A stretch of 63,993 nt of DNA, the filler included, from Bonamia ostreae (taxonomy: Eukaryota): assembly GCA_040357525.1 (NCBI GenBank). It is 20 parts of 20 records of this genome, joined end to end, with 100 filler letters (N's around TTAATTAATTAA, not from the genome) between each part and the next. Parts side by side here need not be neighbours in the genome. Positions count along the whole stretch, not along the records: positions 1 to 3,155 come from JBDODL010000570.1; positions 3,256 to 6,408 come from JBDODL010000571.1; positions 6,509 to 9,660 come from JBDODL010000572.1; positions 9,761 to 12,902 come from JBDODL010000573.1; positions 13,003 to 16,142 come from JBDODL010000574.1; positions 16,243 to 19,381 come from JBDODL010000575.1; positions 19,482 to 22,619 come from JBDODL010000576.1; positions 22,720 to 25,856 come from JBDODL010000577.1; 12 more parts are not named here. One strand, written 5' to 3'. The notes below the pieces were generated by a model, which was given only the letters and a program-made list of their open reading frames with translations, searched no databases and was not told the DNA's origin. Of the stretch, positions 33-48,447 are shown piece by piece. Both the position numbers and the translations under genes were made by a program. Within the stretch, counting starts at the first letter, position 1. Every line of letters starts with the position of its first letter.

Positions 33-895
33 ATGGATTTCAGTCTAAATGTGCGGAAAAACGAAGAAATCGACCGATTGCAAAGAGACGAAAGAAGATA
101 CGCTTCGAAGATAGTCCAGAAAATAGCCAAAACAGGATGCAATGTCCTTTTGGTGCAGAAGTCGATCATCAGAGACGCGCTCAGTCCGCTTTCGCTCCAT
201 TTTTTGGCGAAGAAAAGAATAATGGTCGTCTCCGACATTGAACGAGATGACATTCAGTTCATCGCAAAAGTTCACCTTTTTGACGAAAGAGCTTAAATTT
301 GCGTCCGATTGCTTCGGTCGACGACTTCGTCTCCGACAAACTGGGCAGCGCGGAGATCGCAGAAGATGAGCAGACAGCGAACGGCGCCATCGTCTCCATC
401 CGCGGGATTCGGAAACAGCGATCTGCTTCCGTCCTCCTCCGCGCCTCCAGCAAAATCGTCCTCGACGAAGCGCACCGCTCGTTCCACGACGCTCTCTGCG
501 TCGTGCGCTGTCTCGTCCGCGTCCCGCGCACGATTCCCGGCGGCGCCGCTGCCGAATCCGAGATCGCCTTCCGGACGCGCCAACTCGCCGAGTCGCTCGA
601 AGGCGCCGACGCGATGTGCGCGAAGGCGTTCGCGGAGGCGATGGAGGCGGTTCCCTTCACCTTGGCGGAGAACTGCGGGCTGAAGCCGTTGGAGATCATC
701 GGAGAGCTGCGAGAGCAGCACGAGAAGGGCGAAGGGCGAATGGGCATCGACGTGCGGAAAGGGAAGGTGGGCGACATGGAGAAGGCGCGGGTGTTGCAGC
801 CTGCTTTGGTGAGTCTGAGGGCGGTGGCACTGGCGACGGAGTGTGTGCGGATGGTCCTGAAGATCGACGGAATAGTTCAGACGGCGAGAGATTAG
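33..895 (+). CDS. CCT4: Chaperonin CCT/TRiC subunit delta, 5'-partial; 20-nt intron 270-289
   Basis: Motifs GCNVLLVQKSIIRDA, DEAHRSFHDALCVVRCLV, PGGAAAE, LATECVRMVLKID. Removing GTTCACCTTTTTGACGAAAG joins FIAK to SLNLRPIAS in frame. Confidence 0.95.
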
Positions 896-1162
896 TAAAT
901 CTGTTGTTGTTCCATCAATTTTACATTTTTTTTATTTTTTTGGTCAAAATGTTCTATTTTTATCATTTTTTGGTCAAAATGTTCTAATTTTGGCCAATTT
1001 TATTTTGTTTGAAACAATCGATTAACAAAAATCAGCAGAAACAATAAAAATGACTTCCACCGATCGAACACTAAAAAGAAAAAATCTGCGCCATTAAAAA
1101 TCGGCTAAACCTTTAAAACAAAAGCTAAATTCGATTATATAAAAATTTTCAAAACAACAAAA

Positions 1163-1641
1163 ATGAACAAAAGTTTTCTGAGTACAAAAGATGCTTTAAA
1201 ACAAGACATTAAAGGCGATTTGACAGAAAATCTTTTAAACAAAATTTCGTCTCTCGAAATCAGTGACATCGAAACCGCTGTCAGACAAGTTACAAAAATT
1301 TTATTTTCCAAAAATCTTAATTCTGAAAAATAAGCGAAAATTGGACGAATTGGAAATAAAGAAGAATTTGCTATCAAAAATTTACGGCGACCATTTCTTC
1401 AATACAATTGACAACGAATTGGTTTCAATGACAAAAAAAATTGCAACAAAATTTTTATTAAAAAATTGCAAAAAAGAAATTTTTTTCGGCGGCGAGCAGA
1501 TTGCCCGGTTTGAAACAAAGTTATTTTGGTCTTGACATCTTGCTAAATTTGGACGAAGATATTGATTTCGACGATATCAACGAAAAAGATATCGTCGAAA
1601 CTTCCAAATTCGATTTGAAAGAGGAACTTGAAAAGCTTTAA
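1163..1641 (+). CDS. UMP1: Proteasome maturation factor UMP1/POMP-like, two introns
   Basis: Spliced translation gives ...KIYGDHF...SRLPGLKQSYFGLDILLNLDEDIDFDDI..., matching the UMP1 C-terminal pattern. Not visible as one ORF in the track. Confidence 0.7.
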
Positions 1642-1877
1642 TAAATTTATTGCTATTTTTGATTTCATTTGGCAAAAATTTTGTTTCGCCAAAAATTGTT
1701 TCTGTTTTTAGGCGGAAATTGAGTTATTATAATTTACAAAACTGTTTTAAAAATCCCCAATTTGCAATTTTCCATTTTTTCATGCAAAAAAATTAGAAAA
1801 CAAAATGTCCCGAAAAATAAAATTTAAATAATTTTATTAAAAAAATATCCTGTTCAAAAAATATTAAAATCGGAAAC

Positions 1878-3155
1878 ATGAAAATGATTCCGTTGCTCAT
1901 TTCTTTCTTTTTGCTGTTGACAAAAAGAAAAACGAACAGTTGCAATGTAACAAATGCCTATTTCTGTTTGTCGACGCGTTTCTATAACGGAGACTCTCAA
2001 CAAACGGAGCTCATTGATCGTGTGAAAAAATATTTTGAAGAAAACTCTGAGAATTTTGTCGATTTTATGAACAATCAAAGCCAAACTCGGTTAACGGCCA
2101 ACAAATGTATGAGAGATTCGATTTTGAAGTATAAAAACAACCAAATGAACAGATTGGATGTGATTTTTTATTTTTACGAAGACGTTGACATTGAGATAGT
2201 CAAAAATTCTGTTGAGAATGGATTTGTACCTTTGACCATGGTACAGTATGGGCCCATAAAATCTCCTGAAGAGTATAAGGAAATATTATGCAGTTTTTTG
2301 TTTGTTAAAAATTGTCTTTTATAAAGATACGCCATTAAAATGCTCCAGACCAATTATAAATCATCCCTCTTTGGACCAAAGTTCCTTGTCACAATGCGAA
2401 AACACAAAGTTATTTCATACTTGCGATATAAAATGTGCCCCGAAGTACAAACTAGTTAATAAAATCTTTTGTGATTTATCGAATGAATGGAGTTTTGATG
2501 AAAATGATTGTGAAAAATGTTTTTCAATTTGACTAATTTGCAATAACACATAAAAAATAGTACAATGCGAACCATTGTTAATCGAAAACTCGGAAAACGG
2601 ATTACTTCAAAACGTTCAAGTTGACACTGCCATCGACATCAAATGCAGAAGCAATTTTCTCTTATATGATTTTGACGAACCTTTAACTTGTGAATACGAC
2701 CAGTTCGATATAGAAAAAGGTAAATGGAGCAATATTCCATTTTGTGTCAACAGTTTTAACAAAACACCCCCTTTAAAAGAAAAATGCTCCCCTCTCACTA
2801 TTGAAAACTCTTCAAATGCTTTTAATTTGGATTATTATACTGTCGGATATGGGCTAATCGTCGAATGCGTCAACGGCTATGAACCATCTTTGAAACCGAA
2901 AGACAATAGATTTCCGATTGTTACAGAATGCGTCATTGAAATAACGAATATGAAGCCGGGAGAGCCAACTTGGAAGAATGTTGTTGCGTGTGAAAAAAGC
3001 GATGTTCTGAAATGCGGCATTTTTGAAATACCTCATTCAAACTTTGCGTCTGTAGTAGTGCATTATGAGATTGAAACAATTTTGACTGTAATTTGTGATG
3101 AAGAATATGAATTGTCTGACGCAAATTTGATGTCGATCAAATGCGGTGTCGAAGG
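1878..3155 (+). CDS. Secreted or surface protein with tandem sushi/CCP modules, 3'-truncated
   Basis: Hydrophobic N-terminus MKMIPLLISFFLLL. Repeated C..P.I.NS...C..GY...C...W...C modules. GT-AG introns near 2293 and 2519. Confidence 0.75.
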
Positions 3156-46092: not shown

Positions 46093-46497
46093 TGTTAAAG
46101 CCAAAATCGAACTTTGTAATTTAATAATGTTTTTATTATATAATAACTATTAATATGGAAAAACGCTAATAATGAAATCAAGGAGACAACAATTTAAAAA
46201 TTATATTTTTTGGAACCCGTTTCCATTGTATGTCGGATTCAGAATCAAAATCTTCCGCCGCCATTTTATATAATTGCTCACGGCTAAAATGGCCTTGAAC
46301 ACTGTAGCAGAATTTGTTAAAAACTTTTTAAAAATCACTTTTATTGTTCAAAAAAATGACCTTGAACAATCACTTTAAAAAGTGAGCTAAATTGAGACAC
46401 ATTTGTTAAAAACAAATTTTTTGGCAACAAAATCTTGAAATTATTTTACGGTTATAAATCTTATTAAAAATGGTGGAAAAAGTTGTTAGATTGAAAT

Positions 46498-46891
46498 TTA
46501 TTTTGAATCATCACTAGAAAAATCTTCAATTGCGGCAACAATGCGTTCGAAATTACCGTCTTTGCTGTAATGCGAAGAAGTTTTTCTGGTGCTTTTCGAA
46601 AAGACGATTTTAAGTCTTTTTCCGTTGATTTTTAAACCATCCACCGCTTTTTTAGCTCTTATTGCAGATTTTTTGTTACAAAATTCGACATAACAAAATC
46701 CTCTCGGTTTGTTCGTGCCGTAATGTACTGGTACATGGATATCGAGCAATGTGCCGAAAGGAAGAAAAATGTCTCTGATAGTTTTCATGCTTTAAATTTA
46801 TTTTTAGAGACTTTGTTTTGTGACTGATATTTTTGATAAATAAAGTTTTCGAAACAGCCATTTTTCCATTTGATTTGCTACTTTTTTGCAT
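46498..46891 (-). CDS. Single-RRM protein, SRSF10/SC35-like RRM; 3' end uncertain
   Basis: TLFIKNI, PFGTLLDIHVPVHYGTNKPRGFCYVEF. Confidence 0.75.
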
Positions 46892-47036
46892 TGAAAAACT
46901 TTTCGAAATAGCAAAACTTTTCAAAATTTAAAAATCCAAATCAAACAGAAATACGAACAAAAAATTATATACATAATCGTTAAAATAAACTGTTTTTATT
47001 CGATTTTAGAGCTTTAAAATATATAAGCGATTTGAG

Positions 47037-48447
47037 ATGGAATCAGAATTCGAAATTATTTATAACAGCAAACAGGTTTTCACAGAACTGAAAGAAAAAT
47101 CGAAAAACAAAGTTTTTAAAGAAATTAAAAGAAATGTTTTGATTGTGGTAGCAATGACCCCAATTGGTGTTCAGTGACCTACGGAATTTTTATTTGCGTT
47201 CAATGTTCTGCTAAACATCGTAATATGGGTGTTCATACTTCTTTTGTAAAGTTTGCCATTATTTTTTGTACTTGATTTTTACTTATTTTTTTGCGACTTT
47301 TATTGATTTTTTTGCGACTTTTACTGATTTTTTTGCAACTTTTGCTGATTTTTTTTGCGACTTTTGCTGTTTTTTTTGTAACTTTTACTGGTTTTTTTTT
47401 GCAACTTTTACTGATTTTTTTTTGCAACTTTTACTGTTTTTTTGCGACTTTTAGTGATTTTTTTTTGCAACTTTTACTGGTTTTTTTGCAACTTTTACTG
47501 ATTTTTTTGCAACCTTTACTGTTTTTTTGCGACTTTTAGTGATTTTTTTGCAACTTTTACTGATATTTTTGCGACTTTTGCTGATTTTTTGCAACTTTTA
47601 CTGATATTTTTGCAACTTCTACTGATTTTTTGTAACTTTTACTGATTTTTCCCGCCAATTTGACGAAAAATTTGTTTTTGAAATTTGCAATTTATGGCAA
47701 GTCAAAAAGAGATAATTTTAAAAGATCAATTCAATTCGACAAATGGAAGCCACAGCACATCAAAAGATTAATTGCTGGCGGCAATGAAAAAGCAGAAATG
47801 TTTTTTAGAAAACACGGGTTCCACACCGGCAAACTAGAAAACGCGAATGAGATGTACAACAGCCAAATCGCACAAAAATACAAATCTTTATTAGATTCGC
47901 TTTCAAAGTTTTAAATATTAATACCAAATTTAAAGAGACATTTCCTTTGAAAAACCAGAAAATTATGAGAATTTTGAGAATGGCTTCAAAATCTCTTCGC
48001 TCGACGAATTGCTAAAAAAGGCCTCGACCAAAACTAGACCAAACAACATTTTCAACGAAAATGCAAAATCGGAAGATGAAAAAATTGAGCAAAATTTGGA
48101 AAATTTTAGTGAAACGACAAATGAAAAGATCGATTTTTTTAAGGAACGAAACGAAATGAACGACAACGAATTTGATAAAAATCGTAATTAGTTTTAAGAT
48201 TTAGCTCTAATTGACGAAAAAGCGAACTATCAAACAGATTTAGAACTCGCTTTTGAAGATTTTGACGATTTTGAAAATGAAAAAACGGAAAATGACGATT
48301 TTCTTTTGAATTCAGATCATTCTTCGGAAACAAACGAAAAAGCAAAAACTGTTTATCAAAACGACGACTTTTCCAAAACAAAAATTCGGAAGAAACTGAA
48401 TCGAAAAATTGCGAAAAAAGCTTTGACGAAAAAAATGACTTTGAACA
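47037..48447 (+). CDS. ArfGAP (Glo3/ARFGAP2-3-like), 3'-truncated; introns 47112-47131 (20 nt) and 47251-47724 (474 nt)
   Basis: [46 protein letters not shown]...GGNEKA. Confidence 0.93.
47270..47650. repeat. About 21-23-nt tandem repeat filling the ArfGAP intron
   Basis: TTTTTTGC(A/G)ACTTTTACTGA units, roughly 17 copies. Confidence 0.92.

Follow-up and report, generated by a model that had tools for sequence, protein, structure and literature searches.

Bonamia ostreae is a haplosporidian and is related to the mikrocytids. In Paramecium, introns measure about 25 nt, begin with GTA and end with TAG, and in-frame introns lacking a stop are in deficit. Still shorter introns have been described in the mikrocytids Mikrocytos mackini and Paramikrocytos canceri, in which introns measure 16 nt (217 of 224) or 17 nt (7), and the same report cites lengths of 18–21 nt for chlorarachniophyte nucleomorphs and 15–16 nt for heterotrich ciliates (PMC10245619). 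Another departure is that of Entamoeba, in which the U1 sequence 5'-AACAAAC-3' matches GUUUGUU donors; 88–90% of donors are GUUUGU and 96.9–98.5% are GUUUGN, and the branch point of E. invadens is at −8 (bioRxiv 10.1101/2022.06.08.495308). The available excerpt of that preprint does not report ultra-short introns in Entamoeba.

Here we confirm that B. ostreae genes carry real GT–AG introns, mostly of 20–25 nt. The segments are very probably genuine U2-type (GT–AG) spliceosomal introns of nuclear genes, and most equal or slightly exceed the shortest length that works, 20 nt. The combination of a tiny intron and a GUUU start, against the usual GUAAGU, is found in public gene models and is undescribed in print. 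Like the mikrocytids, B. ostreae belongs to the class Ascetosporea and has spliceosomal introns that are among the shortest known and follow a common sequence pattern (PMC10245619). In length, those of B. ostreae differ from the 16–17-nt introns of mikrocytids by a floor of 20 nt and a tail to 474 nt. They also share the length class of about 15–21 nt and the sharp lower bound of nucleomorph and heterotrich introns, although these have a narrow range and belong to unrelated lineages, whereas B. ostreae combines a floor with a long tail. An earlier sequence-only reading had likened the introns to those of Paramecium and chlorarachniophyte nucleomorphs: the sizes are indeed alike, but B. ostreae is kin to the mikrocytids, not a ciliate or nucleomorph.

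Results

The window, the whole 63,993-nt stretch of DNA analysed, consists of about 20 separate 3-kb contigs of B. ostreae, an identity borne out by NCBI protein records with 100% matches. RNA contigs, public gene models and exon-wise Pfam continuity together support 26 introns, all with GT..AG ends. The set is small and was partly chosen by the sequence-only reading, possibly with a preference for GTT..AAG; 10 of the 26 are supported by Pfam continuity alone, and 3 of those 10 (33340, 47112 and 31887) are weak. That reading had listed nine introns of exactly 20 nt, eight with GTT donors and seven with AAG acceptors. All nine segments are present as written, eight on the plus strand and one (16771–16790) with GT..AG on the minus strand only, and their ends are as described (GTT 8/9, AAG 7/9).

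RNA evidence comes from one contig, with an eIF1A gene, a small gene and a gene for the PP2A structural subunit. It was drawn from the RNA-Seq library X5, some of whose contigs end in poly(A), and from X4, RNA by guess, with zero depth across the intergenic bins 17503–17922; the DNA run X1 has a 2842-nt contig spanning 16544–19381. All seven GT..AG segments that can be tested with RNA are missing from X4 or X5 contigs (7/7) and present in the X1 contig (7/7). The eIF1A intron (16771–16790, minus strand, 20 nt, GTTTAA..GTAAG) is omitted in both X4 and X5, and an internal AG at its position 16 is passed over in the RNA. The 20-nt intron of the small plus-strand gene (17249–17268) is omitted in an X5 contig whose poly(A) end is at 17449, and that of the PP2A gene at 18140–18159 (plus strand) is omitted in an X4 contig. 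At these three sites, the only ones among the nine claimed that RNA could test, exactly 20 nt are thus removed.

The public B. ostreae protein P0121, mapped back on the same contig, uses five further plus-strand introns of the PP2A gene, including all four RNA-shown ones within its span. X4 contigs omit 20 nt at 18825–18844 and at 18938–18957, 22 nt at 18601–18622 (GTAAAC..ATTAG; the gap was reported at 18600, and a one-base slide gives GT..AG ends) and 55 nt at 19107–19161 (GTC..CAG, joint 19106>19162). At the fifth, a 27-nt intron (18421–18447), one X4 contig begins at 18448 and a second reads through, unspliced.

A second public protein, P0001 (Spb1/FTSJ3), is 100% identical and maps back on its contig with eight introns, all on the plus strand, a high density for a 2.2-kb gene; introns in the P0001 and P0121 models range from 20 to 55 nt. 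Two of the P0001 junctions are claimed 20-nt sites: 43037–43056, after codon 13, with the FtsJ profile beginning in the next exon, and 43668–43687, whose whole upstream exon corresponds to FtsJ positions 74–179. Between them, a 36-nt intron (43189–43224) follows an exon ending at FtsJ position 34, and a 22-nt intron (43325–43346) precedes an exon opened by position 74; the FtsJ profile continues across this junction and across 43668–43687. Further downstream, a 25-nt intron (44258–44282) is given by both P0001 and the gene finder, and a 54-nt intron (44800–44853) precedes an exon opened by Spb1_C position 45. Two in-frame introns are in the P0001 model only: 43865–43888 (24 nt, GTTGGA..TGCAG), which the gene finder read through because it holds no in-frame stop, and 44627–44647 (21 nt, GTTTCT..AATAG), where the greedy mapping was shifted by one base.

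Elsewhere introns were placed by the continuity of Pfam profiles, which supports another claimed 20-nt site, 270–289 (plus strand), in a CCT/TCP-1 chaperonin gene. Here Cpn60_TCP1 is continuous from 290 to 291: position 290 ends the upstream exon and 295 is residue 5 of the downstream exon, implying 291 at residue 1. On the minus strand, a 71-aa exon of a C2-domain protein corresponds to exactly C2 positions 9–80, the domain being cut at both ends by introns of 21 nt (53637–53657) and 22 nt (53400–53421). In the gene for proteasome RPN1 (plus strand), a 29-nt intron (59940–59968) separates RPN1_RPN2_N position 157, at the exon end, from 159, residue 2 of the next exon. In the same gene profile positions 124 and 132 are separated by about 177 nt, and with the GT..AG pair of the 158-nt intron 59703–59860 (GTTTTTTT..TTTAG) the profile is off by no more than one position. 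Alternative frame-compatible pairs of 152 and 122 nt leave the profile discontinuous.

In an ArfGAP gene (plus strand), the profile runs from 54 to 55 with one pair only, giving a 474-nt intron (47251–47724, GTTTGC..AAAAG). The claimed 20-nt intron at 47112–47131 is compatible with the profile, its downstream exon opening with the CxxC zinc finger at ArfGap position 15; the exon before it, at 34 aa too short to score, has zero profile matches of its own. A 21-nt intron of a Torsin-like AAA protein (33340–33360, plus strand) lies between AAA_2 position 103, near the exon end, and 110, at the next exon start, with weak matches (E=0.0099 and 0.0063). The match is likewise weak for the claimed 20-nt candidate in a PLAC8-like gene (31887–31906, plus strand), which links two open frames (40 and 69 codons) and puts PLAC8 position 17 at downstream residue 2 (E=1.9e-4); an annotated protein or homologue of 37–121 aa was not found. 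The last claimed site, 5443–5462 (20 nt, plus strand), stays an unverified candidate on motif and frame: it fits the consensus and links two open frames (37 and 48 codons), with zero matches to Pfam families and zero relatives among 1.84 billion representatives.

Removal of the introns restores conserved proteins, while retention shifts the frame in 18 of 26 cases; 6 of the remaining 8, whose lengths are multiples of 3, contain an in-frame stop and 2 are stopless. As in Paramecium, the introns are short and AT-rich and their retention usually breaks the frame, and the two stopless cases among 8 multiples of 3, in a sample of 26, are few to set against the deficit in Paramecium. These counts also bear on whether the segments are introns at all. 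Strain indels, assembly errors or non-spliceosomal excision would gain from the guessed RNA status of X4, but are highly improbable explanations: the X1 DNA retains all seven segments while poly(A)-ended X5 contigs lack two, independent public gene models share the junctions, the ends are GT..AG throughout, retention breaks or stops the frame in most cases, and the segments are not prone to form hairpins (mean z −0.2 over 21 introns).

A codon-scored gene finder returned 18 GT..AG introns of 18–23 nt, including nine at exactly 20 nt, against 2–9 introns and 0–2 of 20 nt for seven control dinucleotide pairs. The excess over the control dinucleotides is confined to 18–30 nt and starts at 20. In tests using open reading frames only, GT..AG could not be separated from the control dinucleotides. 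A model-free count gave 84 occurrences of GTT-N-(A/T)AG at a spacing of exactly 20, where the background is 56.2 ± 7.8 (z=3.6); at this spacing all GT..AG pairs show a modest excess (z=2.6) and GTT..SAG none (z=−0.5).

The lengths of the 26 introns peak at 20 nt (10 introns) and none is shorter; 11 are 21–29 nt, a range in which the sequence-only reading had put many, and the others are 36, 54, 55, 158 and 474 nt. The size floor that it had suggested fits the set, and lengths of 12–17 nt show no excess over controls. The 19-nt spacing is mildly raised (z=1.8), so that a few introns shorter than 20 nt may exist. Internal AGs that would yield introns of 6–16 nt occur in 6 of 21 short introns and are all skipped, one of them as shown by RNA. 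The floor had been argued from bacterial-type (mitochondrial) release factor 1, where an AG giving a 15-nt intron is passed over for one giving 23 nt (34981–35003, plus strand). The 15-nt option leads to a stop after 4 residues, and the 23-nt option gives 157 residues with the GGQ motif and RF-1 in frame; the PCRF domain ends within exon 1, and RF-1 position 5 is residue 1 of exon 2.

GTT, which makes up 45.7% of GTN trinucleotides across the window, predominates among the donors (20/26, P=0.0012), and GTTT accounts for 15/26 against a background of 0.22 (P=9e-5). U is found at +3 in 20 and at +4 in 16 introns and G at +5 in only 3, and exons end mostly in AAA, with A at −1, −2 and −3 in 17, 16 and 16 of 26 and G at −1 in only 4. 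The consensus reads AAA/GUUU(U) ... A-rich from −9 to −7, UU at −6/−5, (A/U)AG; beyond GUUU the positions are loosely conserved and the run goes on as U/A. Near the 3' end, A occupies −7, −8 and −9 in 15, 16 and 15 introns and T occupies −5 and −6 in 14 and 13. The G normally expected at exon −1 and intron +5 is absent, as is a long pyrimidine tract; the A-rich 3' half described earlier is borne out (A 0.52; the 5' half has T 0.54), together with the lack of a classical polypyrimidine tract.

The donor half of the reported end bias stands, and the AAG half does not exceed composition (16/26, P=0.06; background share 0.444); among the 16 introns from RNA and public models, a motif-blind subset, AAG and TAG occur 7 times each. 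The rule is A or T before AG (24/26), with C or G avoided (GAG 0/26 against a background of 0.17) and AAG not preferred. It is unlikely that base composition alone accounts for the GTT and AAG signals, with a spliceosome that requires nothing beyond GT, AG and a branch A. The AAG count and the high share of GTT among GTN agree with that idea, but the enrichment of GTT and GTTT, the missing GAG, the opposite composition of the two halves of one short sequence, and a 20-nt spacing excess in GTT..WAG and not in GTT..SAG all speak against it.

Discussion

We propose intron definition, in which the entire intron would be recognised as a single unit. Judged from composition in an AT-rich genome, the branch adenosine probably lies 7–9 nt from the 3' end, and the 3' site may be the earliest AG that can be used a few bases beyond it; AGs at or before the branch would therefore be ignored. 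The AG skipped in release factor 1 may be passed over for this reason alone, as it coincides with or precedes the probable branch point. The 20-nt floor could then be the sum of a minimum distance from 5' site to branch (about 12–13 nt) and from branch to AG (about 7–8 nt), and binding of the U2AF65 type to a tract would have little room.

From the donor and acceptor bias, the sequence-only reading had predicted altered pairing of U1 and U6 or a lesser dependence on U2AF. The standard U1 5' end is ACUUACCU, and U5 loop I contains uridines. A standard U1 would keep about 2–3 pairs with these donors, far below yeasts with a single +4U change, and +3, +4, +5 and exon −1 all deviate from its canonical partner. 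This favours a co-evolved U1 whose A-rich 5' end is complementary to (AAA)GUUUUU, a plausible reading that we nevertheless lean against. Entamoeba and Mastigamoeba provide precedents (bioRxiv 10.1101/2022.06.08.495308), and B. ostreae resembles Entamoeba in U at +3/+4, AT-rich introns and a branch point (predicted in B. ostreae) near the 3' site. However, Entamoeba keeps the +5 G that is rare here, the U1 change is demonstrated in Entamoeba only, and the loose conservation after GUUU makes a fixed partner less obvious than for donors that are 88–90% GUUUGU. An Rfam search of the window for snRNA found nothing, U1 included (0 hits). Moreover, the preprint describes standard U1 in Thecamonas, Mamiellales and 69 Saccharomycotina species despite atypical donors (bioRxiv 10.1101/2022.06.08.495308).

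That lineages with atypical donors often retain standard U1 (bioRxiv 10.1101/2022.06.08.495308) supports instead a U1 that is standard or lost, with the 5' site set mainly by other contacts and a short fixed branch distance, a reading that is slightly more likely than a co-evolved U1 but still has less than an even chance of being right. The 5' site could be contacted by U6, by proteins that bind the stretch of U's at the intron's 5' end, or by U5 loop I through pairing with the exonic AAA. The exon-end A's could pair with the loop I uridines, and GTTT remains at the 5' end in two of the three introns of 55, 158 and 474 nt. On the other hand, the sole RRM gene in the window matched no particular factor, and A is abundant in exons in any case (0.35 of the window), so that codon usage may account for part of the AAA signal.

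The longer introns would be inflated versions of the short units, the two longest probably through AT-rich tandem repeats. The 158-nt RPN1 intron contains a tandem array of 33 nt × 4 and the 474-nt ArfGAP intron one of 21 nt × 17.7 (47277–47650). Introns of 55, 158 and 474 nt have end signals similar to those of the short ones: the latter two start with GTTT, and the acceptors are CAG, TAG and AAG, respectively.

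Evidence that the short segments are introns

That the short segments in the window are genuine introns is shown by their removal from RNA, their GT..AG ends and the proteins that excision restores. The sequence-only reading had listed nine GT-AG segments of exactly 20 nt, and all nine are present as written, eight starting with GTT and seven ending in AAG. RNA and DNA contigs were compared over one window contig, 16243-19381, in which stretches without RNA cover are uninformative and which holds three of the nine sites. At 16771, 17249 and 18140 exactly the 20 bases in question are absent from the contigs of X5 (an RNA-Seq run, contigs with poly(A) ends) and X4 (presumed to be RNA, with zero depth in intergenic bins), and kept in X1, a DNA run; the intron at 16771-16790 lies on the minus strand. 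The RNA contigs also lack 20 nt at 18825, 20 nt at 18938, the 55-nt GT..AG segment 19107-19161 and 22 nt at a gap reported at 18600, which a one-base slide turns into 18601-18622 with GT..AG ends. All seven segments dropped by the X4/X5 contigs are retained in a 2842-nt X1 DNA contig.

Two public B. ostreae proteins match window exons at 100%: P0121, ‘Protein phosphatase 2A structural subunit, variant 2’ (public contig 3139 nt), and P0001, ‘AdoMet-dependent rRNA methyltransferase spb1, partial’ (public contig 3123 nt). Mapping of P0121 places plus-strand introns at 18421-18447, 18601-18622, 18825-18844, 18938-18957 and 19107-19161, and it uses all four RNA-shown introns inside its span. Mapping of P0001 gives eight plus-strand introns of 20, 36, 22, 20, 24, 25, 21 and 54 nt, among which are the two 20-nt segments proposed at 43037 and 43668. 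Two of the eight, 43865-43888 and 44627-44647, are taken from the public model only; their lengths are multiples of three with no in-frame stop, and retaining them would add 8 and 7 residues, respectively, and nothing more.

Pfam scans were run exon by exon. Intron removal yields a continuous conserved protein for CCT, Spb1, RF1, RPN1, ArfGAP and a C2 protein by Pfam, and for the public proteins. The Cpn60_TCP1 profile continues 290|291 across the junction left by 270-289, as the sequence-only reading had it, FtsJ positions 74-179 fill the Spb1 exon between 43346 and 43668, the RF-1 profile starts at the first residue past 35003, the RPN1 profile continues 157|159 across 59940-59968, and a 71-aa exon carries a C2 domain cut at both ends. 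Three of the nine segments remain. At 47112 a zinc finger begins directly after the intron, which is compatible with splicing; at 31887 the candidate intron precedes a weak match to PLAC8, and no annotated protein or homologue of 37-121 aa was found for this exon; at 5443 the candidate intron fits in reading frame and motif only, and the homologue search gave 0 hits for the exon. The CCT exon matched chaperonin clusters only in the Protein Atlas. By eye, the CCT 3' exon (290-892) is far GC-richer than the 25-37% found across the window, and it has a long spurious open frame on the opposite strand; codon usage may differ strongly between genes.

An X4 contig at 18393-18477 passes unspliced through the 27-nt intron 18421-18447 at a depth of 336, compared with 1311 in the adjoining spliced contig; a second contig begins exactly at 18448, and no joining contig is among those listed. 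This intron may be partially retained. In the region 16650-17449, eIF1A (minus strand, poly(A) at 16650) stands head to head with a small plus-strand gene (17183-17427, poly(A) at 17449) whose word depth in X4 far exceeds any other.

Tests against chance

Tests based on open reading frames only did not separate GT..AG from control dinucleotide pairs in any of four cases; they counted junctions over all 256 dinucleotide pairs, filtered on the flanking ORFs at three strengths or chained ORFs by length. The reason is that a GC-rich gene has several open frames, and frame restoration alone is therefore no evidence here. In the 18-23-nt range a codon-scored chain finder returned 18 GT..AG introns, including nine of exactly 20 nt, against 2-9 for seven control pairs, with 0-2 of 20 nt. 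The corresponding counts were 9 versus 0-7 at 24-30 nt; there was no excess at 12-17 nt (3 versus 3-8) or at 31-60 nt (15 versus 17-34), where individual members look real. This finder called 18607-18622 where RNA gives 18601-18622, called 59633-59661 although a Pfam match spans that stretch, and is blind to the two stopless in-frame Spb1 introns. Counted free of any gene model, GTT..(A/T)AG at a spacing of exactly 20 occurs 84 times, versus 56.2 +/- 7.8 (z=3.6) from background spacings of 40-120, and all GT..AG pairs at spacing 20 number 234 versus 197.6 +/- 14.0 (z=2.6). At spacing 18 there is no excess, and at spacing 19 z for GTT..WAG is only 1.8.

Intron anatomy

Twenty-six introns have RNA, public-model or Pfam-profile backing, and every one begins with GT and ends with AG, as expected of U2-type spliceosomal introns. 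The proposed modal length of 20 nt is borne out by ten of them; three are 21 nt, three are 22 nt, and one each has 23, 24, 25, 27, 29, 36, 54, 55, 158 and 474 nt, so that none is shorter than 20 nt. Donors start with GTT in 20/26 (background 0.457 of GTN, P=0.0012) and with GTTT in 15/26 (background 0.22, P=9e-5), and the exon end is A-rich (A in 17, 16 and 16 of the 26 at -1, -2 and -3). The canonical 5' site is MAG|GURAGU, which pairs with standard U1. The Bonamia introns depart from it, with R at +3 in 4/26, G at +5 in 3/26 and G at exon position -1 in 4/26; this departure is no bar to their being spliceosomal. The extended 5' site and branch box of U12-type introns occur in none of the 26 donors, which are GTTT, GTTC or GTAA.

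The preference for AAG acceptors in the sequence-only reading is no more than base composition predicts (AAG 16, TAG 8, CAG 2 and GAG 0 of 26; AAG background 0.444, P=0.06). Among 16 introns chosen without regard to motif (RNA and public models), seven end in AAG and seven in TAG, and the base before AG is, as a rule, A or T. Two further claims on base content stood up: in introns of up to 30 nt the 3' half is A-rich (A 0.52, versus T 0.54 in the 5' half), and a long pyrimidine tract is absent, the pyrimidine runs having 2-7 bases, and no more than five in 23/26. A is found at -7, -8 and -9 in 15, 16 and 15 of the 26 introns, and T at -5 and -6 in 14 and 13. In the fourteen 20-nt introns, comprising the ten supported ones and four with gene-finder or motif backing only, positions 13 and 14 are each A in 11/14. 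No tendency of the U-rich half to pair with the A-rich half as a hairpin was seen over 21 introns (mean z -0.2).

Length floor and long introns

In mt-RF1 an AG that would close a 15-nt intron leads to a stop after 4 residues, and splicing out 23 nt leaves 157 residues that include the GGQ motif. Internal AGs occur in 6/21 short introns, would give introns of 6-16 nt and are all passed over; at 16771 RNA proves the skipping of an AG four bases upstream. The skipped AG in mt-RF1 had been taken as the sign of a size floor: the skipping itself holds and fits a floor, and the skipped AGs agree just as well with usual splicing behaviour, in which AGs that lie at or before the branch point, or just past it, go unused.

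Two plus-strand introns are much longer. The 474-nt ArfGAP intron (47251-47724, GTTTGC..AAAAG) is required for profile continuity at 54|55 and is filled by an AT-rich tandem array of 21 nt x 17.7 at 47277-47650; the 158-nt intron at 59703-59860 is required by the RPN1 profile and is filled by an AT-rich array of 33 nt x 4 at 59704-59836. Intron growth here appears to proceed through tandem expansion. Introns of 20 nt and 474 nt are both spliced in this genome, and the same machinery therefore handles both; ‘ultra-short’ applies to the mode and the floor and is no universal rule. The window abounds in AT-rich minisatellites with a period of ~20-45 nt (63 rows, some overlapping), others lying at 16243-16589, 54551-54883, 29302-29523 and 14015-14325.

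Reading of the splice sites

We propose that the introns would be recognized by intron definition, with a branch A at -7 to -9, where the A enrichment, in an AT-rich genome, is suggestive only. The 3' site would be chosen by its distance from the branch, and the floor would then be the sum of ~12-13 nt and 7-8 nt. The 5' end of standard U1 is ACUUACCU, and we take the 5' site AAA|GUUU(U) to be without every purine that standard U1 pairs, which points to a changed U1 or to other readers. A changed U1 would have a precedent in Entamoeba, where the accessible text of a preprint sets U1 5'-AACAAAC-3' against GUUUGUU (bioRxiv 10.1101/2022.06.08.495308); however, the same text reports that several lineages with odd donors retain standard U1, which speaks for other possible readers, such as proteins that bind the U-run, U6, or U5 loop I acting on the exon-end AAA. 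The likeness to Entamoeba is also incomplete: its GUUUGU(U) hexamer is found in nearly all introns, whereas in Bonamia GTTT and G at +5 reach only the 15/26 and 3/26 counted here. Rfam gave 0 matches in the window, snRNAs included, and the sole RRM gene there (open frame 46501-46791) has generic RRM matches from which no splicing factor can be named.

We regard as possible, if improbable, a shifted splice code in Bonamia, in which G at -1, R at +3, A at +4 and G at +5 would have been replaced by an exon-end AAA and an intronic U-run. This code would be read by an A-rich reprogrammed U1 5' end and/or through Watson-Crick pairs between U5 loop I and the exon, and the 3' site would be set by branch distance, not by U2AF on a pyrimidine tract. 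If true, the haplosporidian system, with its 20-nt floor and the tail of longer introns kept, would be an intermediate towards the fixed 16-17-nt introns of mikrocytids. An open frame at 37440-37967 (minus strand) carries an HVSL domain (E=9.3e-18). It presumably belongs to the USB1 family, the enzyme responsible for trimming U6 snRNA at its 3' end; in that case U6 biogenesis would be kept at least in part.

Relation to known systems

The accessible text on mikrocytids, which like B. ostreae belong to the Ascetosporea, gives introns of 16-17 nt only and no identified U1, and cites introns of 18-21 nt in nucleomorphs and 15-16 nt in heterotrich ciliates (PMC10245619); unlike the mikrocytid introns, those of Bonamia have a minimum of 20 nt and range to 474 nt. 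For B. ostreae itself, the parts of the genome paper seen describe ‘canonical introns’ at a mean of 2 per mRNA, from funannotate with default settings (PMC11069148), compared with eight in Spb1 alone in the public model. Its four supplementary files, in the portions available, hold one ‘U2AF’ row, which concerns a paramyxid branch, and do not touch on introns of B. ostreae; the B. ostreae transcriptome paper leaves introns unmentioned. Our search, with subscription journals mostly outside it, brought up no publication that deals with the length or the donor motif of introns in Bonamia or other haplosporidians. The introns are thus already in public gene models, and their description is absent from the literature found.

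The feature is real, and its novelty is the joint occurrence of micro-introns and a U-rich, transformed donor. Each is known from different lineages, and here both occur together in a haplosporidian, a relative of mikrocytids. The combination offers a comparison point for the way in which a spliceosome's substrate becomes smaller and for drift in the 5' site code, and makes one sharp prediction, on two sequences: the 5' end of U1 and the ACAGAGA box of U6. In practice, many B. ostreae genes will come out broken or frame-shifted from any gene finder or read aligner that requires introns to be longer than 20 nt.

Other features of the window

The window consists of ~20 unrelated pieces, from 3,155 down to 2,589 bases and largest first, and features on different pieces have no linkage. 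The spacers between them read N44-TTAATTAATTAA-N44, at 3156-3255 and then every ~3.2 kb, and there is one further N100 gap. The published assembly comprises 12.24 Mb in 9705 scaffolds, with an N50 of 1417 bp and 33.3% GC (PMC11069148, Table 1 as available).

Sushi, Torsin and WW domains are encoded in the window. Together with a run labelled ‘mollusc metagenome’ they suggested a dicyemid mesozoan; this origin, like a ciliate or nucleomorph one, is rejected, the 100%-identical NCBI proteins carrying the name Bonamia ostreae. A cysteine-rich protein at 1986-3153 (plus strand) has Sushi/CCP repeats (Pfam E=5.6e-6), and its contig carries candidate introns of the Bonamia type at 2293-2326 and 2519-2560, both starting GTTTTT; because of these the gene appears to belong to the parasite and not to contaminating host DNA. 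To our knowledge, complement-control-type repeats are unusual outside animals.

Two adjoining gene copies on the minus strand, 20567-20912 and 21628-21874, share ~310 nt at 100% identity (alignment columns 350-624). The identical block begins within the 3' end of the intron (...TATAAAAAAG), upstream of which the copies are only loosely alike, and their introns measure 37 and 55 nt. Possible explanations are an assembly repeat and a recent duplication or conversion with its edge in the intron. The comparison of the paralogues at 20540-21230 and 21600-22210 does not count in favour of a conserved intron position, given that the 100%-identical block starts in the intron 3' end. An unbroken open frame of 398 codons at 40775-41968 (plus strand) has an endonuclease-reverse transcriptase domain (Exo_endo_phos_2, E=5.6e-16) and is likely a non-LTR retrotransposon.
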